A stretch of DNA of 64,000 bases from positions 32,001 to 96,000 of IMG/VR virus record IMGVR_UViG_3300023048_000002. The stretch is one strand, 5' to 3'. The position numbers and the translations under genes are program-made. The DNA is from a virus. Taxonomy: Duplodnaviria; Caudoviricetes. A model generated the notes under the pieces. It ran no database searches and was not told where the DNA came from. It saw nothing but the letters and a program-made list of their open reading frames with translations. Positions 33,647 through 44,978 of this stretch are shown one piece after another; the first letter of the stretch is position 1; each line of letters opens with the position of its first letter.

Positions 33647-36600
33647 ATGAGCGATAATTATAGTGTAATTTATTTAGATATGGATACTGGCAATAAGCTG
33701 TATCTTGAAAAAGCATTGGGTAGTGGCATCGCTCAGTTTAAATACATCCAGAATGTTCCTGCTGCAACATGGACTCTCTTCCATCAACAGTTTTCTGATA
33801 AGTTTGTTATTTCAATTACAGATGAGAATAATGAAGAGATTGTTCCTGACAGCATTGTTGTCTTCGATCTAGATACTATTGCCATTCATTTCTCGGAACC
33901 AGTAATGGGTAAGGCTATCCTTATCATATTTGATAAGAGTAATGCACTCCCAAGTCCAACACCAACAACCACTGCAAGTAACACGCTGACCCCAACTCCT
34001 TCAGTGAGCAAGAGTGTGTCTGCAACTCCAACGCCTACACCTACTAATACACGCACAATTAGTGTAACCCCATCAATCACAGCTTCTATGCATGCTAGTG
34101 CAACACCGTCACCAACCGTTACATTGACTGCCACACCAACTCCTACTCTTACTGTAACACCTAGCGCATCCTCAGCAGTTATCCTGCTTGATGGTCATGT
34201 TGCTGATGCACTAATTAATGATTCCGTTGCCGGTTCATACATGATTGTAAATGGTGATGTTTCTGGAACATTTAGCATATCGAATGATATGGGTGACGAT
34301 GCAACCTTCAGCATTAATTCCGGTACGTTCCCAGCAGGTCTATCTTTGAATAGTGATGGTACCTTTGCTGGTGCATACAATACCGCAGGTAGCTTTACAT
34401 GGGTTGTAAAAGCTGTGGATTCTGAAGGCCGTGTTGGTATGCTTGAAGATAGTAACCAAGTTGCTACCATTGCTGGCTACATTAATGCCACCGCCGTTCT
34501 TGGTGCACAGGTACAATCAAGTAATGCATTAACCCCTCGTGGCCTATGGGCTTTCGTAATGGGTGATTTTGACTTTGTTAATAGATTAATTACTCTATAT
34601 GTGGATGATGTTAATAGAGGAACGGCTCCTGCTGAAGTCGGCCCACAGACAAACATTGATATCACCATCGGTGGTATCAATTATTCATCCGAAGGAATCT
34701 CTGGATGGAGAGGTGATATTTGGGGTGCTGGTATTGCGAATGGTGGTTTGACGGCTGATGAAAGAAGTCTACTATGGAATTCTGGTAACGGTATTCGCTT
34801 TGATGATTTGTCAACTAGAACAGATTCAGTATCTCAGTCACTTTGGGCAAAGATGGCATATGCTTGGCAGTTAGATGACGATGCTACTGGTGATACTTAT
34901 ATCGATTTGACCGGACACAAGAACCTAAGCAAATCTTATACACTAACAAATCGTGATGATAGTAAGTTTGGTAGAGTAACTAATTTCCCTAAATCTGGTA
35001 AGCTAACTGCTATCAACTCAAGTTCAGACGGTTTTGAAAGTAATGATCATTCAACATACTTCGCTTGGGTATTTGCGGAAGTTGAACAGACTGATGACTT
35101 CCCATCTGTAATTTCAAGATATAATGGCGGTGGTAACTTCCAAGGTATCCGTTGCTTCTGGACATCTGATGTCACAGACCCAACTCCAACTCCATCACCA
35201 TCTGTTACACCTTCGCCAGTGACCCCAACTCCTACACCATCTATTAGTATGAGTGTATCTTTAACTCCTTTAGTCACCCCCACGCCAACACCGAGTGTAT
35301 CTACAGGACCAATAATACCATACGAATCAGCTATTTTAAATAGAGGTCCATTAGTATTCTTAAAACTCAATGAGACTTCTGGCTTAATTGCAAAAGATTC
35401 AAGTGGCAATGGCCGTGATGGTACCTATAATAATACAACCATCATCGGTGCTAATGGTCTATATGGGTCACCGTACTCGGCGCGTACCAACTTTGCAGGG
35501 TTTAATATTCCTTGGGATGCTGGCTTAGATGTTACCGGTGATTTCACTATTTTCATGACTGCAAAGATATCTTCTGCAAGCAATAGTAATCAATATCCAA
35601 AATTGGTAAGCAAATATGCTGGTGATGCATCTTCTGGATATGCTACCTATATGCTACAGATGACTGGTAGCAGTGGTGATATGACTAGTCGTGTGAGTAC
35701 AACAGATAACTCATATAATGATATTACTACTTCATATCCCGTAAATGATGACATCACACGTCTATATGCAGTAAGACGCTCTGGTAATGAAGTATCATAT
35801 TTCATTAATGATACCTTGATTGGTAGTATTACTGTCAGTGGTAATAACAGTATTTCAAATTCCCCAATACAAATTGGTGGTGATAATAATGCCCGTGATG
35901 GAATGGATGCAAATGTGCAATGGTTTAGTGTATTTGATTACGCTATAGCTGATAATGATATTACAAGCCTATATTATCTAGCATCGGGTATTACTCCTAC
36001 ACCTACGCCATCAGTAAGCCCTTCCAGTACTCCTAATTTGACTTCAATTGATCCATATTTTAATAATGTTGTATCTCTACTACACTTGGATGGCGATAAT
36101 GGTTCACAAACAATCACTGATCAGATTTCAAGTAATCAATGGACAGCACGTTTAGCCGCAGGGTTGAGTAATGAAAAAACATTAGTATCTGGTACATGTG
36201 CTAGCTTACCCGGAACCGCATATAGTTATCTATCAACCCCATATAACCCAATCTATGACTTCGGTACTGGTGATTTTACTATCGAAATTACAGTCATGTT
36301 CAGAGCATTCAATGGTGAATATCAAATATTTGCATCAAGACAATGTGATAGTCCAGTTTCTATAGCAGTCCAACTTAGGTTAAATCCATCGAATATTATT
36401 GAAACAACCCTCCGTTCAGGAGATGGTAGCCAAGTATTGAATGTGGCAGGCACATCAGTATTATCTGAAAATACCAAGTATTCTATTGGTGTTCGTAGAT
36501 TAAATGGTATTGTAGAACTTTATGTAAATAATATCATGGAAGGCACTATTGCATGTGCATATGATATGTATGATGCTGCTCAAACCCATGGTTGGGTGCT

Positions 36601-37378
36601 TGGTACTGGTGATGGTAATGATCCGGGGAGTGGTAATAACCTCAATGGATGGCTTGATGAATTCCGTGTCACCAAGGGTGTTGCACGAGATTTAACCATT
36701 CCACAAGTTGGACCCTTCCCTGATGTATCAGGGACAACTCCTATGCCTACACCATCTGTAACACCAAGCCCATCAGTAGGCCAAAGAACCTATTTTGACC
36801 CAAATAACTCTTCACCAAGTATAACGACTACATCAAGTAATTCATATCGTGTAGCTACACGATCAACTGATCCTGACAATTATGTAAGTATCAAATCATA
36901 TGGTCATTCAACCGGGAAATATTATCTAGAGATTGTAACGAATACGGTAGGAAGTTGGGATGGTGGTATATTAGCCGGTTTTGGTTTTTCTAATGCTTTA
37001 AATAATACCTATGCTGGTGCAGATGCTTCAACCTCGATAAGTCTACAGAGTAATACCAGTGGCGATAATGCTAATGGATATGGTTTTAAAAATTGTACCA
37101 ATTCATCAGTTGATCGTATAGATGGTGTCAATAGATACTTCCGTCTGGCAATTGATTTTGATGCTGGAAAATTATGGATAGGCTCTGAGACGATATGGGC
37201 ATGTGGTGGAAGTGATCCATCTATTGGCAGTTCACCATTTGGAAACTTCACACCAAATACCATGATGTATGTAATGGCTTCCATGTATGACTCAGGTAAC
37301 AGTGTAACTATGAATGCATACTCTGATGAAATGATCGGAGCCATACCTACTGGTTTCTTACCATGGGGTGGTTCATGA
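33647..37378 (+). CDS. large virion surface/fibre protein: Ig-like, several LamG/ConA-like and a SPRY-like domain joined by Pro/Thr/Ser linkers
   Basis: FPAGLSL..DG; LKLNETSG..AKDSSGNGRDG; VVSLLHLDG..FGTGDFTIE..GWLDEFRVTKGVAR; TGKYYLE..AIDFDAGKLW; (PT)n tracts. Confidence 0.8.
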   Translation: MSDNYSVIYLDMDTGNKLYLEKALGSGIAQFKYIQNVPAATWTLFHQQFSDKFVISITDENNEEIVPDSIVVFDLDTIAIHFSEPVMGKAILIIFDKSNALPSPTPTTTASNTLTPTPSVSKSVSATPTPTPTNTRTISVTPSITASMHASATPSPTVTLTATPTPTLTVTPSASSAVILLDGHVADALINDSVAGSYMIVNGDVSGTFSISNDMGDDATFSINSGTFPAGLSLNSDGTFAGAYNTAGSFTWVVKAVDSEGRVGMLEDSNQVATIAGYINATAVLGAQVQSSNALTPRGLWAFVMGDFDFVNRLITLYVDDVNRGTAPAEVGPQTNIDITIGGINYSSEGISGWRGDIWGAGIANGGLTADERSLLWNSGNGIRFDDLSTRTDSVSQSLWAKMAYAWQLDDDATGDTYIDLTGHKNLSKSYTLTNRDDSKFGRVTNFPKSGKLTAINSSSDGFESNDHSTYFAWVFAEVEQTDDFPSVISRYNGGGNFQGIRCFWTSDVTDPTPTPSPSVTPSPVTPTPTPSISMSVSLTPLVTPTPTPSVSTGPIIPYESAILNRGPLVFLKLNETSGLIAKDSSGNGRDGTYNNTTIIGANGLYGSPYSARTNFAGFNIPWDAGLDVTGDFTIFMTAKISSASNSNQYPKLVSKYAGDASSGYATYMLQMTGSSGDMTSRVSTTDNSYNDITTSYPVNDDITRLYAVRRSGNEVSYFINDTLIGSITVSGNNSISNSPIQIGGDNNARDGMDANVQWFSVFDYAIADNDITSLYYLASGITPTPTPSVSPSSTPNLTSIDPYFNNVVSLLHLDGDNGSQTITDQISSNQWTARLAAGLSNEKTLVSGTCASLPGTAYSYLSTPYNPIYDFGTGDFTIEITVMFRAFNGEYQIFASRQCDSPVSIAVQLRLNPSNIIETTLRSGDGSQVLNVAGTSVLSENTKYSIGVRRLNGIVELYVNNIMEGTIACAYDMYDAAQTHGWVLGTGDGNDPGSGNNLNGWLDEFRVTKGVARDLTIPQVGPFPDVSGTTPMPTPSVTPSPSVGQRTYFDPNNSSPSITTTSSNSYRVATRSTDPDNYVSIKSYGHSTGKYYLEIVTNTVGSWDGGILAGFGFSNALNNTYAGADASTSISLQSNTSGDNANGYGFKNCTNSSVDRIDGVNRYFRLAIDFDAGKLWIGSETIWACGGSDPSIGSSPFGNFTPNTMMYVMASMYDSGNSVTMNAYSDEMIGAIPTGFLPWGGS

Positions 37379-37862: not shown

Positions 37863-38218
37863 AGCATTGACTGAATTAGTTCATAGGATTCTAGATTAAC
37901 GTATTCCTGCTTGTTAGTCTCAAAATCCTTTAACTGAGTTTCACCTTCTGGTGTTAACTGTCCCATCTGATCTACCAGATTGTTATTATACAAAGCATCC
38001 TTTCCGCTAGGTGACAGAGCAAGCTGATTCGCGCTCTGTTGCACGAGTCCTAGTCTTACCAACTCATCCTTAGCCTGAATAGTGTTAGGAGAACCTGATG
38101 CCATATCAAAGGCCTGCTGTGGTGTTGCAGAAGCGAACACAGTTACTAGCATACCTTTCTGTGAATCGGTTAGATTCGTTGTTGGTGCTTCGCTTAGGAT
38201 ATCCCTAATCTTTTTCAT
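37859..38218 (-). CDS. hypothetical protein
   Basis: 119 aa; MKKIRDILSE N-terminus. Confidence 0.7.
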   Translation of the reverse strand: MKKIRDILSEAPTTNLTDSQKGMLVTVFASATPQQAFDMASGSPNTIQAKDELVRLGLVQQSANQLALSPSGKDALYNNNLVDQMGQLTPEGETQLKDFETNKQEYVNLESYELIQSML

Positions 38219-38784
38219 AGTCGTCCCATTTTGATTAAATGCAATTGAAGAACCACGAGAAGAGCGTATGCCAGAGCATGCGCTTTTTTCATATGCGACT
38301 TATCTCTGATCGTGTAAAGCTCTTTACGATGTTCTTTCTTATTCTTTAGATATTTATCCAATATCTTTTCTTTCATTGGTCTAATGAAAGCAATGGCATC
38401 AGCAATTTCTAGAACGGATGTTGGCTTGATGGCATAGACAATATCGAAGTGACCAGTTAGATGGAACAGTTTGTCCACATTAGATCGTTCAAGCAATAGC
38501 TTCCAGTCTGGTTCAATATCCAGAAGGTCATCCATTTCTTTCTTAGAACTGAACAGCTTCAATGTATTATTGTTAAGCATGTCAATCTTGAAATACCCTT
38601 CCTGCTCTGCATCCTCATAAGGAATAGCAGACAGCTTGGTCATCCGATCCTTCGGAATGTTTTGAAAATATATGCCCACAGGATGGGGCTTCAATTGTCC
38701 GTTCTGAACCATTGAAGCCTTTGTGGCTAAGTTGAAAAGTTTGAAGGGATTGACATCCGGTCGGATGTCGATGTCTATATCCAT
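38215..38784 (-). CDS. DNA polymerase III alpha (DnaE)-like fragment 2, catalytic palm
   Basis: MDIDID (cf. PDIDIDF), HPVGIY, GYFKIDML (cf. GLxKxDxL), KAHALAYA (cf. KSHAAAYA). Confidence 0.85.
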   Translation of the reverse strand: MDIDIDIRPDVNPFKLFNLATKASMVQNGQLKPHPVGIYFQNIPKDRMTKLSAIPYEDAEQEGYFKIDMLNNNTLKLFSSKKEMDDLLDIEPDWKLLLERSNVDKLFHLTGHFDIVYAIKPTSVLEIADAIAFIRPMKEKILDKYLKNKKEHRKELYTIRDKSHMKKAHALAYALLVVLQLHLIKMGRL

Positions 38785-39434
38785 TTTTTTGAGCCCAATA
38801 CTAGTAAGTCTCTTTTGAGTATATCACATTCTTCCAATGTTTCAATCTCATCAATTCTTTTCTTGTATTGGTTCTTGATCTGTTCGACGGATATGAGTCG
38901 CAACAAATAATTTTTTCTTGCCTTCACGAATATGTGAGCTACTGATTCATGTGAACGGCCACTATGCTTTGATTCTAATTCTATTAGAATATTATGTTCA
39001 GTCTTTCCATCAAAGAAACGAACCGCTTCTTCAAAACGCTCAAGCATCAAATCTCGGGAATCGAAATCATCTTGAATGCTACTGACAACATTACGAATGA
39101 TTTCACGAACCATTCGTCTTAGCTCTTCTTTATAATGTTCTATAGATTTGTAATCAGTACTCTTGTACTTGACCGGAGGAATATGTTTCTGTAAGTCAGC
39201 AAGAAACTCCATAGCTTTCCCAATATCATGGAAATCATCTACGGAGCGTACTTTGATTCTCCACTGTTTCCAGAGTTCCATGATGGATGGTTCAAGTTCA
39301 ACGTCTTTCACAAAAATCCAATCACTGTTGGATAACATGCGGTTACGTATTGACTTTACTTCATTCCAATCATTTTTTCTCTTTTCATCAGTGGTAGATA
39401 TCTTTAGACTTTTTATTCTTTTAATTTCAGTCAT
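38775..39434 (-). CDS. tail-fibre assembly chaperone-like protein
   Basis: W.EVK.IRN.ML..SDW....D......W.QWR..VR motif. Confidence 0.6.
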   Translation of the reverse strand: MTEIKRIKSLKISTTDEKRKNDWNEVKSIRNRMLSNSDWIFVKDVELEPSIMELWKQWRIKVRSVDDFHDIGKAMEFLADLQKHIPPVKYKSTDYKSIEHYKEELRRMVREIIRNVVSSIQDDFDSRDLMLERFEEAVRFFDGKTEHNILIELESKHSGRSHESVAHIFVKARKNYLLRLISVEQIKNQYKKRIDEIETLEECDILKRDLLVLGSKKWI

Positions 39435-40618
39435 TAGTCGGTGTGGATATATCTGTACTGGACAGTTACGTTGTTAGTGTAAGCTACAACGCCACGAGCA
39501 TCCGTGACTTTGTAACGGAAGATTGTTGTGTAGCGTGGTGTACCAGTACCATCATCATCCGCACCAATGGTTGCCTTAGGACCAATCCATGAAATGGATA
39601 GCGCACCCGGTGTTGCTGTGTTGAATGAACCAAATGTATTCAAGCTATCACCACTGATCAAATCATAACCATAAGTGTATGGACCAACACCACCTACAGC
39701 AGTCAATGTCGATGATCTTGATGGAGTGCACTGGTCAGTTGATAGACCATTACATGAAGATACAAAGGATGATGCTGGAACGCCGATAACTAGCGGTGCT
39801 GCTGATGCTGATGGCGTGTTGGACGGTGTTGGAGTAGGTGATGGTGAAATCGTTGGTGAAGGTGTCAATGACGTTGCTGGTGTGGCTGAAATTGAGGCCT
39901 GTGGTGTTGGGGTAGGTGTTACGGTAGGTACTGGTGTGGCACTTCGTGTAACCGTTGGAGTAGGTGTTGCAGACTGACCAACAGAAGATGTTGGTGTTGG
40001 TGACGGTGTTGGTGTGATCTGTACTGTAGGCTGTGACTGATTTACGTTACCACCAATACCCACAATCATATAGTTAGCCAAACCACCAACCACGTTTGAT
40101 ACGCCAACGTATCTCATCTTCATAGACACCAAACCATTATTATCAGTTTGGCATTCTAAGTAATCAATCTTTTGTGGAATGTTGAATGGACTTACAATCC
40201 AAACACATTCCGAGTATTCAAATGTTCTACCAGAAGACTCACTGACAGGCTTAGGAATGTACTGACCGTCTGAAATGATGCCCCAATTGGCAGCAACGTC
40301 ATCTTCACGGGCAATAGGAATCCACTTTGAACCATCATAATAATTCAATAGCTTCTTTGTACTATTCCACCACCATTGACCTTCAATCTTATCCTGAAAC
40401 AAACTATCTACGGCACGATTTTGATCGGGATTGCCGGGATTATTTGCATCTTCTGGACATGCGAAGTTCTCAAGGATATGAATTAGATTATCCTGAAGTT
40501 CCTTACCATAGGCAAGACGCTTACGACCGAACAATGTAATGTCAGTCGAGTTATTAACCTCAGTCTCATCAATCATGATAGGAAGTTTGGTCTTGTCAGT
40601 AAAGTTAATAGTATACAT
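39434..40618 (-). CDS. virion structural protein, paralog 3 (no Hint domain)
   Basis: Shared N-domain [33 protein letters not shown]; PT linker; beta-rich tip. Confidence 0.8.
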
Positions 40619-40621
40619 TAA

Positions 40622-40792
40622 TTAATCCCAAGTCTCAAAGTCTTCAATTTTACTGCCAATCAAATCTGGTGTGAATTCCTCATCAGGCATTTCACAGACG
40701 ATATAGCCGTTCTTTGAAGCATCTTCAATATTTATTGGCTTGATAGCACTACCAATGATTACATTATCTGTTTGTCTTACAATTAAAAACAT
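40622..40792 (-). CDS. hypothetical 56 aa protein, not in the ORF track
   Basis: Hand-translated MFLIVRQTDNVIIG...; AAGGA RBS. Confidence 0.6.
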   Translation of the reverse strand: MFLIVRQTDNVIIGSAIKPINIEDASKNGYIVCEMPDEEFTPDLIGSKIEDFETWD

Positions 40793-40801
40793 AGTTAATC
40801 C

Positions 40802-40975
40802 TTAAATTAGGCACTCTTGATACGTACCATCATTACAGAAGCATCCATCCATGATAGATGAACCTCCGCCATGACCTAAACATTGCTTATCACAAGTAGT
40901 GCAGCGCTTGATATCAATAGTCAAGTCTTCACGTTTAGGATATTTATTTTTCTTTGGCTTCTCGTTATCAGTCAT
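40802..40975 (-). CDS. small Cys-rich protein, 57 aa, not in the ORF track
   Basis: Hand-translated MTDNEK...RCTTCDKQCLGHGGGSSIMDGCFCNDGTYQECLI; AAGGT RBS. Confidence 0.65.
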   Translation of the reverse strand: MTDNEKPKKNKYPKREDLTIDIKRCTTCDKQCLGHGGGSSIMDGCFCNDGTYQECLI

Positions 40976-40984
40976 ATTATTACC

Positions 40985-42376
40985 TTAAACGTCGGAACAG
41001 CAGTTTGGTGGAATCCAAGTACCTGTACCATCTGCACAATAGCAGCACTTAATGTTATGGTGAAGAATAAATGCATCTGACTGTTCACCAGCCCAAAAAC
41101 ACTTATCGCCAACAGTGATATGCTGAACCCAAATATCACCCTCATCAGTTACGCTAATAGCTTCTTCCCACTTTGATTCACCGTCAACCATGACAGCTAC
41201 ATGCTTACCTAAAACGAATGGTGCTTCAATGACACCTTCAGTTGTAGGAATTGGTGCAGTAGTTGAACATACTAGCGAGATACCAGTTCTGGTAACAATT
41301 CTTACTGACGGCTGCAAGCTTGGTTCAGAATAAGTGACAATACCTGTACCCGGAGTCAAATCATCTTGATCGGCTAAGATCATAGAATCGCCCGGTTTAA
41401 TTTCACCAGCAATTCTTCCATCAGGCAGGAATGAGTTAACTGCTACACAGCAGTGAGCCTGTATCGCTTCACAACGCTGACATGCATTCAAGAATGGTGA
41501 TGGCGATGGCGTGATAGTTGGAACTGGTGTATTTGAAGGTACTGGTGTGTTAGATGGTGCCGGAGTATTTGATGGTGCTGGTGTTGGCGAAGGAACAGGT
41601 GTAGGTGTTCTTGTGCTAGTTGGCACTGGTGTATTAGTTGGAGCCGCTGTTCTTGTTGGGGTAGGTGTAGGTGTTCTTGTTACAGTAGCCGTTACTGACG
41701 GTGTTGGTGTAGCTGATGCCGTTGGTGTAGGTGTAGGTGTTCTTGAAACGAAAGGAGTTTGAGGAATAACATTCATATTACCTGCATTAACGTTTCCACT
41801 AATAGCAATAATCATGTAGTTAGCAATGCCTTTCGATAAAGCATCATCACCATAGGCTCTGTACTTCATTGAAACTATACCAGAGTTATCCGTAGTGCAA
41901 AGCATGTAAGTGAAAGCCTGTGGAAGCTTTGCAGGAGATACAGCCCAAATGCATTCACTATAATCATAAACGTAACCATTATAACGATTAACTGGACGTG
42001 GAATTTGCTGGCCGTCCTGAATCTGGCCCCAATTAGCTGCAACATCACCCTGTGTTCTTAAAATTTCCCACTGTGCACTATTGAAAACATACATCTTCTT
42101 ATCAGTGCTGTTAAACCATAACTGACCTTCTGTAGGAGTATCCAATGCACCACCATTGATCGTGGCGTCTGGAAATACATTTGAGTCAGTTGAAGCTGCG
42201 TCTTGAGGGCATGCAAATCTTTCAAGAAGATGTAGCATGTTTTCATTTAGCTCTTCACCATATTCAAGATCAACTCTACCAAACAATGAAATTGCAGTAG
42301 AGGTGTCATCCTTAGTACCTTCTTTAAGGGTAATAGGAGTTTTGTTGATATCTGTAAATCTTACGTTGTAATCCAT
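40985..42376 (-). CDS. virion structural protein, paralog 2, with a Hint domain flanked by Cys-rich segments
   Basis: Shared N-domain, PT linker, CVAVNS...ILHHN. Confidence 0.8.
   Translation of the reverse strand: MDYNVRFTDINKTPITLKEGTKDDTSTAISLFGRVDLEYGEELNENMLHLLERFACPQDAASTDSNVFPDATINGGALDTPTEGQLWFNSTDKKMYVFNSAQWEILRTQGDVAANWGQIQDGQQIPRPVNRYNGYVYDYSECIWAVSPAKLPQAFTYMLCTTDNSGIVSMKYRAYGDDALSKGIANYMIIAISGNVNAGNMNVIPQTPFVSRTPTPTPTASATPTPSVTATVTRTPTPTPTRTAAPTNTPVPTSTRTPTPVPSPTPAPSNTPAPSNTPVPSNTPVPTITPSPSPFLNACQRCEAIQAHCCVAVNSFLPDGRIAGEIKPGDSMILADQDDLTPGTGIVTYSEPSLQPSVRIVTRTGISLVCSTTAPIPTTEGVIEAPFVLGKHVAVMVDGESKWEEAISVTDEGDIWVQHITVGDKCFWAGEQSDAFILHHNIKCCYCADGTGTWIPPNCCSDV
41054..41449 (-). other. 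Hint (intein-like/BIL) domain, 132 aa
   Basis: Cys1 block A CVAVNSFLPDG..AGEIKPGD, block B VRIVTRTG.SLVCST, block F/G VQHITV...FWAG...ILHHN. Confidence 0.8.
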
Positions 42377-42378
42377 TG

Positions 42379-44253
42379 TTAATCCGATGCTTGATTTAAT
42401 TTGTTATGGTGTAGGATAAATGCATCTGCTGTTTCACCAGCCCAAAAACATCTATCATCTACAGTAATGTGTTGAATTTCTTTATCCCCAACACTCTCAA
42501 CCATGATGACAACTTCCCAATTGGTTAGATTGTTTCTCATTACTGGAATATTTCTATTTAACAAATCAGGTGCCATCATGTAACCATTATCATAGGTAGG
42601 GATTGGTGCTGTGGTTGAGCATACCAATGATGCGCCAGATTCAGTTACGATTCTTACGCAAGGCTGTACCTTTGTTGTGGAGTATGAGACATCACTAAGA
42701 GTTGTATCAAAGTAGTTATATGGATCAGCAGTTACCAACTGATCACCAACATTGACTGCCTGTGCTACAGAACCATCAGGGAATACGGAATCAATTGCTA
42801 CGCAACCTCCACCACTTGTTGATGTGCAGTTAGCAGTTGAGAACCAAGAGTCTGTATAGGAGCCCTGTGGAGTTGTATAGGAAGTACCGTATACATTACC
42901 CTGTAGACCAGATGGGGTGTATAGAACAAGCTGTTTGCCAAGAGCATCAGTGATGACGACATAGCTAGCACTAGAAACAGACAATGACCACTGACCATTA
43001 TCACAGTTGTTAAAGATACCTGTAATGCCGATAACTGCGGTTGCAGATAGTGAGCTAGATGAATCTGCACCTGTTCTTAGCGTGCTGGTTGATGCACCAG
43101 ATGCACCAGCATAGCTTCGTGTGGTTGTGGTTGCGATAGTTGCACCAGTTGTGGTGTCAACCAATGAGGAACCAAAATTAACGTTACCAAACTCTACACT
43201 ATATGGCGCTGAACCACCTGAAATTTCCTGTACGATAACACTCATATTGTTCAAGCAACTTACGCGAGTGGAAGCTGTTGTTGTACATGGTGAAGGAATT
43301 TCTGTGTTACCAGCCTGTGGATATCCCTTAGATGGTGAGATATACATCGTAGCTCTCAATGGTGCAATCGTCTTAGATGGCGTAATTGAAGGCGTTGGGG
43401 ACGGTGTGGTAGATGCCGTAGGGGTTGGCGTAGTAGATACGGCCGGTGTCGCTGTACGGGACACTGAAGGCGTTGGAGACGGTGTAGGTGTACGCGTTGG
43501 CGTAGGAGTTACTGTAATACCCGTAGTTGCTGACGGAGTAATTGTTGGTGTTGGTGATGCACCCACCGAAGGCGATGGATTTGGCATATTTGTTGGGGTT
43601 GGTGTTGGTGAAGGAATAGGTGATGGCTGACCATCGTCTGTTCCTTCATTCTGGTTAAACTTAACACCAATGATCTGGTAAAAGGCATAGCCTTCTGAGA
43701 CAGTTGTGAACTGTCCCATTCTATATTGTGCTGTTACCTTGGCTTGACTATCTGTATAACAAATCATGTAATCAACTTCATCAGGGAAGTTGAACGGGCT
43801 AACAATCCAGCTACATTCATCGTAGCTGAATTCATAACCTGTAGATGCTGAAATTGGTCGAGGGAGGTTTGCACCATGAGCGATAATGCCGCTATTACCA
43901 GCAATGTCACTTAATGAACTGTTAGCAATCCATTGAGAGCCATCATAAACATACAATTTCTTTCTAGTGGAGTTCCACCATAGCTGACCTTCAGTTGGTT
44001 GCTTAAGCACACCACCGTAAGCCTGATTGTAGTCTGGATAGTTAGGGTTTGAGGCATCTTCAGGGCAAGCAAAGTTTTCCAGCATGTGCAACATATTCTC
44101 ATCGAATACCTCGCCATACTCTTTACGTGACTTGCCCAAAAGGGTTATATCCAATACATTTTGAATCAGCGTTTGTTTGTTTACAATGATAGGATTTTTA
44201 GTATTATCAGTATACTGTAAATTGTACACGCCGTCAGCGCAATTGTTAGCCAT
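42379..44253 (-). CDS. virion structural protein, paralog 1, with a C-terminal Hint domain
   Basis: Shared N-domain, PT linker, Ser/Thr-rich beta domain, GGG|CVAIDS...ILHHN; TATAAATA at 44283-44290. Confidence 0.8.
   Translation of the reverse strand: MANNCADGVYNLQYTDNTKNPIIVNKQTLIQNVLDITLLGKSRKEYGEVFDENMLHMLENFACPEDASNPNYPDYNQAYGGVLKQPTEGQLWWNSTRKKLYVYDGSQWIANSSLSDIAGNSGIIAHGANLPRPISASTGYEFSYDECSWIVSPFNFPDEVDYMICYTDSQAKVTAQYRMGQFTTVSEGYAFYQIIGVKFNQNEGTDDGQPSPIPSPTPTPTNMPNPSPSVGASPTPTITPSATTGITVTPTPTRTPTPSPTPSVSRTATPAVSTTPTPTASTTPSPTPSITPSKTIAPLRATMYISPSKGYPQAGNTEIPSPCTTTASTRVSCLNNMSVIVQEISGGSAPYSVEFGNVNFGSSLVDTTTGATIATTTTRSYAGASGASTSTLRTGADSSSSLSATAVIGITGIFNNCDNGQWSLSVSSASYVVITDALGKQLVLYTPSGLQGNVYGTSYTTPQGSYTDSWFSTANCTSTSGGGCVAIDSVFPDGSVAQAVNVGDQLVTADPYNYFDTTLSDVSYSTTKVQPCVRIVTESGASLVCSTTAPIPTYDNGYMMAPDLLNRNIPVMRNNLTNWEVVIMVESVGDKEIQHITVDDRCFWAGETADAFILHHNKLNQASD
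42403..42804 (-). other. Hint (intein-like/BIL) domain, 134 aa
   Basis: GGG|CVAIDSVFPDG...VGD, VRIVTESGASLVCST, IQHITV...FWAG...ILHHN. Confidence 0.8.
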
Positions 44254-44300
44254 TAAACCCTCTAGGAACCTATTATCTTAACTATTTATAACCAAGACAA

Positions 44301-44978
44301 TTAAATACCTAGCTCGCGATTAATACTTTTAATCTCATGAACCTTCTCAGGGTTATTGATCAAATGCTGTTTCCAGACACTTACGTCAATAATTTGACTG
44401 AACAAAACACGTTCTTCCTTGTTAGTCTTGAAGGTCATGAAGTCCATGAATTTCTTACTTGGGAGAAGTAGCCATGGCGATAACTTACGAGATGTAATGT
44501 AACGAATAATCTGAATTGGTGTCACCTTGTTAAAGACTTCACCCGTCTCACAGCCTTGCTCAATTGAAATATCACGAATGGTTTCAATCGATAGATCAAT
44601 CTTGGTGTCAATAGGATATTCTTTATCGAAATTTTCGATGTAATAATCATATACATCATAATCACACCAGTTAAAAGGTAGTAAATCCTTCTTAATCATT
44701 AATTCAATATATCCAATCCTGTCAGGGATGGACTGAGACTTACAGAACTTAGAGAACTCTACGAAAGCATTAAAGTAACGGGAACTGGTGAAATTCTCCA
44801 CGGTAACTGGTGGTCGATTTGAAATCTTGCGCCACTGGTTAAACGTAAGGTATGCGATATGACCAATCGGTTTAGCGAATAGATCATAACGCTTCATTTT
44901 CTCGCACTTGTGCTTTAGATAGTTAGCTTCTCTTTTGAAGTTCTTTCCACAAAAATCACAAACTAGGTTCTTTTCCAT
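44301..44978 (-). CDS. zinc-finger-containing hypothetical protein
   Basis: CDFCGKNF.RE..YLKHKC at the N-terminus; LSPWLL. Confidence 0.75.
   Translation of the reverse strand: MEKNLVCDFCGKNFKREANYLKHKCEKMKRYDLFAKPIGHIAYLTFNQWRKISNRPPVTVENFTSSRYFNAFVEFSKFCKSQSIPDRIGYIELMIKKDLLPFNWCDYDVYDYYIENFDKEYPIDTKIDLSIETIRDISIEQGCETGEVFNKVTPIQIIRYITSRKLSPWLLLPSKKFMDFMTFKTNKEERVLFSQIIDVSVWKQHLINNPEKVHEIKSINRELGI

Follow-up and report, generated by a model that had tools for sequence, protein, structure and literature searches.

Hint-fold domains and self-cleaving fibre domains

PMC7765530 describes A-type bacterial intein-like (BIL) domains as Hint-fold domains that have an N-terminal Cys, a C-terminal His-Asn and no +1 nucleophile and that occur in hypervariable parts of non-conserved surface proteins, and it cites work in which these domains cleave at either end, with splicing in Dassa 2004 (Amitai 2003; Dassa 2004, cited in PMC7765530). 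A self-cleaving C-terminal domain known from the tail fibres and spikes of phages is the intramolecular chaperone peptidase S74 (PMC12143355). Our literature searches turned up no description of Hint domains on the fibres of phages. Here we describe a Hint domain between Cys-rich flanks in a 463-amino acid (aa) fibre-like protein, the second of three such paralogs encoded in a 64,000-nucleotide (nt) stretch of phage DNA (positions 32,001 to 96,000 of IMG/VR record IMGVR_UViG_3300023048_000002, hereafter the window), together with the 57-aa mini-gene that immediately follows it. The window is part of a 171-kb virus contig with an estimated completeness of ~49%. An original prediction, made from the letters of the window, held that the Hint interrupts a Cys-rich module of which the mini-gene is a free-standing copy. 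The features that concern this prediction are as follows.

40985-42376, minus strand: fibre-like paralog 2, 463 aa, with anchor, Pro/Thr-rich stalk and Cys-flanked Hint tip
41450-41488, minus strand: N-extein Cys segment NACQRCEAIQAHC, CxxCx6C, with Cys as the -1 residue
41054-41449, minus strand: Hint-fold domain, 132 aa, residues 310-441, CVAVNS...ILHHN
40988-41053, minus strand: C-extein IKCCYCADGTGTWIPPNCCSDV, 22 aa, IKCCYC...W.PPNCC, Cys-rich and conserved, with Ile as the +1 residue
40802-40975, minus strand: mini-gene, 57 aa, with a Lys-rich N-terminal tail and a 6-Cys+His module

The window Hint resembles A-type BILs in its fold, its junction residues, its lack of a +1 nucleophile and its hypervariable location. 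It gives no match to the Pfam Hint profiles and, unlike A-type BILs, has Ala in place of the block-B His, resides in a phage fibre-like host protein, is followed by a conserved [IL]K after the Asn and, within its clade, lies inside a Cys knot; its structural match to the Clostridium thermocellum BIL 2LWY (E 4e-7) is no better than those to inteins. The mini-inteins Ssp DnaB, gp41-1 and Npu DnaB are the best structural matches (TMt 0.79-0.81), and they share with the window Hint a size of ~130-140 aa and a block F/G-like VQHITV...FWAG...ILHHN, but the window Hint has no +1 Cys/Ser/Thr, no homing endonuclease and no empty allele among the relatives searched, and it does not occupy a conserved site in a housekeeping enzyme. 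Hedgehog Hog/Hint domains and the BIL of Tetrahymena BUBL share with most members of the subfamily a Gly-Cys junction and a C-terminal position and, by analogy, a thioester that could be transferred to an external nucleophile; unlike these, the window Hint lacks a sterol-recognition region or ubiquitin-like N-extein and retains the terminal Asn.

As a self-removing C-terminal fibre domain, peptidase S74 would be the nearest functional analogue, although the fold and chemistry of the window Hint are unrelated to a Ser-Lys dyad and the 463-aa protein has no Pfam match to the S74 domain. PT-HINT domains (PF07591) likewise precede a variable C-terminal module, which they are thought to release, and one protein described below (P0219) joins a PT-HINT to a module like that of the mini-protein. 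In contrast to PT-HINT proteins, the window protein does not match PF07591, its C-extein is just 22 aa long, and no toxin domain or immunity gene was seen.

A Hint subfamily missed by Pfam

Neither the 463-aa protein nor any of 57 aligned family members matched the Pfam Hint models PF01079, PF07591, PF13403 or PF14890, even at E<=1. The fold is established by three lines of evidence. An AlphaFold2 (AF2) model of residues 290-463, built from a 57-row alignment, has a core with a predicted local distance difference test score (pLDDT) >90, and a Foldseek search with this model returned 57 PDB matches at E<=1e-3 that consisted exclusively of inteins, BILs and Hedgehog domains. The best match was the Ssp DnaB mini-intein (E 3.5e-8, TMt 0.79), with gp41-1, Npu DnaB, Tetrahymena BIL2, the C. 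thermocellum BIL and Hedgehog Hog among the others and E values of 1e-7 to 1e-8 for mini-inteins and BILs, and the family profile found the gp41-1 intein among PDB sequences (E 0.0045). Together they show that the domain at 41054-41449 has the Hint fold, as had been predicted.

Cys1 is invariant in 57 of 57 aligned homologues (35-68% identity), as are the block C-S-x-x-A-P, F138 and the H150 and N152 of the terminal HHN; over the wider set of more than 65 homologues, Cys1 and HHN do not vary either. The proposed absence of a +1 nucleophile also holds: the residue after HHN is Ile in the 463-aa protein and mostly I, L, V, A or K in the family, rarely S/T, usually with Lys next. Compared with class 1 inteins, the terminal His-Asn is present, a +1 Cys/Ser/Thr is absent and no intein-less allele was seen among the relatives searched (the best 150 of 4088). 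Compared with A-type BILs, the C-terminal His-Asn without a +1 nucleophile is as described, and since the tips of this paralog family are highly variable, the domain sits in a hypervariable region of a non-conserved protein. Judged by their sequences, these domains are a distinct Hint subfamily with BIL-A-like junctions (Cys1...His-Asn, no +1 nucleophile) in which the canonical block-B His is lacking.

The missing His would fit a Hint that does not process at all and is kept on the virion as a structural head or receptor-binding domain, and Hints do fill the tip slot in which other paralogs have binding-type heads. Inactive Hints normally lose the Cys1 and HHN residues. Here, these residues are invariant in all homologues, including bacterial ones beside a C39-ABC exporter, and such conservation is expected only where the chemistry is in use. 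We consider a non-processing Hint improbable.

The subfamily is large and comes mostly from uncultured phages; a few cultured phages also carry copies, which are unannotated. Most of its Hints form the C-terminal ends of proteins associated with the tail or baseplate: in Xanthomonas phage PhiXhv-12 the domain ends a hypothetical protein in the baseplate gene region, in Stenotrophomonas phage DLP_6 it ends a large protein annotated 'VlrC protein', one Hint protein adjoins a gp25 baseplate gene, and another (P0052) has a tail-collar fibre domain. Together with a chaperone-like gene that neighbours the window paralogs, these locations support a fibre context for the 463-aa protein. Paralog 1 of the window carries its own copy at 42403-42804, which reads GGG/C...HHN/KLNQASD (slashes mark the junctions) and has a 7-aa tail and no Cys flanks. 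A bacterial 265-aa Hint protein (L053:4001-8650; GSFG/C...HHN/IK...) adjoins a Peptidase_C39 ABC exporter and an HlyD-like protein, which suggests that secreted bacteriocin-like substrates also use this Hint subfamily.

The Cys-rich flanks and the fate of the Hint

The flank pattern ...PSPF..CxxCx6C/C[Hint]HHN/IKCCYC...C.W.PPNCC.C is kept in 17 orthologues, namely the window protein, P0001-P0013, P0078 and the fibre-2 genes of loci L009 and L023. The CxxCx6C of the N flank is invariant (17/17). With 3 Cys in every N flank and 3, 5 or 7 in the C flank, the sum is 6, 8 or 10, an even number in each of the orthologues. On the orthologue tree, the Cys before the Trp and the last Cys were lost together in at least three lineages (the window/L009 pair, P0006, P0008 and, independently, P0009, which is the sister of the 7-Cys P0010), while the first and last Cys of CCYC were lost together in P0003 and P0008. 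This pairwise loss suggests that the residues are disulfide partners or paired ligands and, if all Cys are paired, the invariant 3+3 means that at least one link crosses between the N- and C-exteins. The sequences thus argue for a single knot to which both flanks contribute and which disulfides or metal would hold together, in keeping with the idea of a single module built from both sides of the Hint. Cys parity is silent on whether the Hint leaves.

One alternative is that the domain performs N-terminal self-cleavage only. The Hint would then be a removable C-terminal maturation or folding domain, S74-like in function, the Cys-rich flanks would set the timing of cleavage as a switch responsive to redox state or Zn, and the C-extein would be lost along with the Hint. 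The GG/C junctions and the non-conserved tails of 3-25 aa in most homologues fit simple release, and the Cys at -1 and +3/+4 lie beside the catalytic residues, in an arrangement resembling the disulfide and Zn traps known for inteins. Yet the C-extein is conserved in all 17 orthologues and its Cys change pairwise, which is unexpected of a throw-away tail, and the terminal HHN is invariant although C-terminal chemistry would be needless. We regard cleavage at the N-terminal junction alone as unlikely for the 463-aa protein.

Excision of the Hint is the reading we prefer: the invariant Cys1 and HHN suggest that both junctions react, the conserved, pair-evolving C-extein suggests that this segment stays on the fibre, and together they favour removal of the domain between them. 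The Hint of paralog 2 would be excised after folding by one of two routes. In BIL-type splicing without a +1 nucleophile, Asn441 would cyclise and the freed amine of Ile442 would attack the Cys310 thioester; in the other route, cleavage would occur at both junctions and cross-flank disulfides would keep the flanks joined. Either route would leave a knot of ~35 aa at the fibre end. Taken as a whole, this explanation comprises an excised Hint, a joint Cys knot, a mini-protein that acts as a separate tip module, and a late operon encoding three putative virion fibre-like paralogs with a common anchor, a Pro/Thr stalk and swappable tips; we give it a probability of roughly 45%.

Several observations weigh against it. 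Block B reads CSTTAP and, in a hidden Markov model alignment, the invariant Ala fills the column of the His in gp41-1 (CSEEH). As the block-B His is normally required for the N-S acyl shift, its absence keeps our case for excision tentative. The majority of the subfamily has poly-Gly/Cys junctions (GGGG/C) and short, non-conserved tails of 3-25 aa, and in these members the domain probably only cleaves, to judge from the junctions. In the AF2 model the flanks are of low confidence (pLDDT 41-60) and the joint knot is not visible. Hint-less alleles of the interrupted knot, which the original prediction proposed to look for in related phages, were absent from the best 150 of the 4088 representatives of the family; the Hint is present in each of the 17 orthologues, and an IMG/VR scan for CxWx[PA]PNCC tails returned Hint-bearing orthologues only. 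The fibre-3 protein P0072 has a differently Cys-flanked Hint and no mini-gene of its own. Finally, the paper on the jumbo phage XacN1, which encodes the same anchor domain in tandem copies, reports both tail-fibre homologues and visible fibres to be absent (PMC5852040), and the anchor paralogs are not in the virion proteome listing of that paper and its supplement (PMC5852040).

If the Hint processes as we propose, it would provide a second self-maturation route for phage fibre-like proteins, chemically distinct from S74, with a bearing on how receptor-binding tips are built and swapped and on the annotation of jumbo-phage structural genes. The parity of the Cys residues makes the knot formed from two exteins a concrete, testable prediction. 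Such a domain, just 132 aa long and able to cleave or splice with unusual demands on its junctions, would also be of interest for protein engineering.

The 57-aa mini-gene and its relationship to the interrupted knot

The 57-aa open reading frame (ORF) falls below the default 60-aa ORF cut-off and is missing from the ORF track of the window, and the suggestion that it is nevertheless a gene with a ribosome-binding site is borne out. In each of the 11 loci examined, the gene for the Cys-flanked Hint fibre is directly followed by a small gene of 53-70 aa, which is uncalled in the source annotation of one of them (L019). Synonymous differences are near saturation (pS 0.5-1.0), non-synonymous differences are few (pN 0.07-0.29), and dN/dS is 0.08-0.36 where dS is estimable; the mini-gene is a real gene under purifying selection. 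In the window, an AAGG motif overlaps the TAA stop of the fibre gene ~6-7 nt ahead of the mini-gene ATG, and a TAAGG[TA] ribosome-binding motif that includes the fibre TAA is found 6-9 nt before the start in 6 of the 9 loci with the junction examined. This overlap suggests translational coupling.

In 6 of 11 loci (window 40976-40990, L009, L017, L019, L021 and L022) the fibre gene and the mini-gene share one frame, with a single TAA between them (SDV-stop-GNNM... in the window). The shared frame could be a trace of old gene fission, an idea that draws also on P0219, which carries a Hint, a Cys-rich stretch and a mini-like module in one polypeptide. Stop-codon read-through into the mini-gene was considered and dropped, since merely these 6 loci are in frame.

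The core of the mini-protein (40811-40903 in the window) follows C..C..QC..HGGG(5-7)C.C[ND][DN]G....C. We define this fibre-tip 6-Cys+His module as a family from an alignment of 13 sequences, in all of which C2, C5, Q8, C9, H12, G14, C22, C24, G27 and C32 are invariant (13/13, including the P0165 and P0219 copies discussed below); HGGG is the most conserved motif. The mini-protein had no match in Pfam, PHROG or NCBIfam, a protein atlas search was also empty, and its AF2 model (pLDDT 67) gave no Foldseek or VIA match. At this model confidence, it also had no profile or fold match to zinc ribbons or DnaJ-type CxxCxGxG fingers.

Could the Cys module split by the Hint exist undivided in the mini-protein, which would then stand in for it as an alternative cassette or an equivalent tip? 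Both the exteins and the mini-protein are Cys-rich, begin with CxxC and have a core of 3+3 invariant Cys, and the window pair has C[FY]CxDGT in common, with P0010 reading CYCND. The Smith-Waterman score of the window pair is 37, compared with 27.5 +/- 5.5 for composition-preserving shuffles (p = 0.06). Across all extein-by-mini pairs, however, the mean is 29.4 against a null of 30.0 +/- 3.0 (p = 0.6-0.7; z = -0.4), and hhalign gives the spliced exteins and the mini-protein a probability of 0.6%. The shared pattern CxxC...H...C[YF]CxDGT...C does not survive comparison with relatives, because its H and DGT are specific to the window among the 17 fibre orthologues, which read GG, GD, ND or DH. 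The Cys spacing also differs (CxxCx3C and CxC...C in the mini-protein, CxxCx6C and C...CC in the exteins), and the HGGG and Q that are invariant in the mini family are missing from the exteins. The GGGSS that had been taken as the loop corresponding to the Hint insertion site belongs to the conserved HGGG and not to a variable loop. These comparisons indicate that the mini-protein is not a copy of the Hint-interrupted knot and shares no similarity with it beyond Cys content, and we consider an intact version of the split module very unlikely.

True relatives of the mini module were detected elsewhere. The mini core scores z = 10.5 against the last 42 aa of P0165, a 334-aa fibre-1 paralog with anchor, Pro/Thr stalk and mini-like module from a sister phage (locus L024). 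The contig of P0165 additionally carries P0012, which is a Cys-flanked Hint fibre, and a separate mini-gene of 53 aa. For the tips of P0142, P0145, P0213 and P0199, which have 6 Cys and no Hint, the score of the mini core is z = 5.1; P0142 occupies the fibre-3 slot, with a chaperone-like gene directly after it. As the shuffle test recovers mini relatives at z = 5-10, it has power enough for a relation of that degree. The spliced exteins, in contrast, are at the null against the P0165 tip and the P0142-type tips in both hhalign and shuffle tests (z ~0). The only longer database match of the mini module is the C-terminus of P0219 (E 1.3e-4), in which the mini-like module comes after a canonical, Pfam-recognised PT-HINT/Hint, with a Cys-rich stretch of 73 aa between the two; co-linearity of the 73-aa region with the fibre C-extein was not significant. 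Scans of DNA with module patterns returned only known relatives or off-frame chance matches in GC-rich DNA.

The module thus occurs on its own, as a fusion with a stalk and behind a different Hint, three forms that make a natural series bearing on how tips are attached. The suggestion that the mini-gene encodes a cassette or partner gains from the P0165 fusion and from the copy after the PT-HINT in P0219; what does not stand is its equivalence to the interrupted knot. The mini-protein would most likely be a separately encoded 6-Cys+His tip or cap subunit, or an adaptor, of the fibre set (CxxCxxQCxxHGGG...CxCNDG...C). A predicted complex of the fibre C-terminus with the mini-protein scored 0.00 and carries no weight either way.

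A more speculative role follows the ciliate BUBL/BIL precedent. The mini-protein would resolve the Cys310 thioester through a Lys in its basic tail, capping fibre 2 covalently and reproducing the fused architecture of P0165. The N-tails of the mini-proteins vary in sequence and contain 24% Lys in 11/11 loci (25% in the window tail), compared with 7% in window ORFs. The mini-gene is always immediately downstream of its fibre gene, with AAGG over the fibre stop in 6/9 loci examined, P0165 has the module fused to its stalk, P0219 has it behind a different Hint, and the best structural matches include BIL2 of BUBL1. Such conjugation in trans would nonetheless give no account of why the C-extein is conserved, mini-genes are missing beside P0072 and other Hint fibres, and the basic tail may merely pair with an acidic 56-aa neighbour, whose charge is complementary to it. 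The odds for this scheme are, in our judgement, slim. It is just as doubtful that the Hint thioester serves more generally as a ligase-free conjugation device, joining the stalk C-terminus to a tip-module lysine or to a host-surface nucleophile; if it did, receptor-binding fibres would be assembled post-translationally or would adhere covalently. We retain as the preferred reading an excised Hint with the mini-protein as a separate tip module.

The fibre-like operon and its neighbours

The window has a GC content of 40% and T4-like replication genes. Along with paralog 2 and the mini-gene, the putative late operon comprises the following features.

44283-44290, minus strand: TATAAATA, T4-type late promoter consensus, 30 nt upstream of the fibre paralog 1 gene
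42379-44253, minus strand: fibre-like paralog 1, 624 aa, with anchor, stalk and plain C-terminal Hint
40622-40792, minus strand: acidic protein, 56 aa, pI 4.1
39434-40618, minus strand: fibre-like paralog 3, 394 aa, with the same anchor and stalk and a tip without Hint
38775-39434, minus strand: protein of 219 aa with a sub-threshold Phage_tail_APC (tail assembly chaperone) match

The count of TATAAATA across the window is not above chance; its position is suggestive. The 219-aa protein matches PF16778 at a sub-threshold E of 4.8e-4, and the match is stronger for its L025 orthologue. Common to all three paralogs is an N-terminal domain of ~200 aa (about residues 1-205 in paralog 2) that corresponds to phrog_15511 (E 1e-99 to 1e-108). 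Beyond this anchor, each has a Pro/Thr-rich stalk followed by a tip unrelated to the other two. The anchor domain is present in 6-7 tandem copies per jumbo phage in XacN1, CM1, RAS14 and Xoo-sp13, and a library of 1.8 billion proteins yielded 250 representatives at E<=1e-30 whose C-termini are highly varied. XacN1 (L054, 118026-132628) has seven tandem anchor paralogs, ORF231-237, followed by the small ORF230 and ORF229, in the same gene order as the window.

The 56-aa acidic protein is highly conserved and lies directly upstream of fibre 3 in every relative examined; ORF230 of XacN1 (55 aa) holds the matching position. Just upstream of the fibre operon, all relatives keep a 225-aa protein (44301-44978 in the window) with a sub-threshold N-terminal C2H2-like zinc finger. 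Divergent from the adjoining fibre operon, a 1243-aa protein (33647-37378, plus strand) combines a PT-rich stretch with Laminin_G_3 (concanavalin-like lectin) domains; it is possibly a further surface adhesin. A 189-aa protein (38215-38784) has a weak DNA_pol3_finger match, and in relatives (the upstream genes of L015, L016 and L024) genes for proteins of ~180-207 aa with DNA_pol3_alpha matches lie several kb off, beyond the opposite end of the fibre operon; a minimal DnaE split into two parts that flank the operon would fit this arrangement. Other tips of the anchor family (P0082, P0099, P0137, P0138, P0163, P0124 and P0139) have 4-7 Cys in their last 70 aa and differ from one another; from these sequences, small Cys knots seem to be widely used as tips within this phage group.

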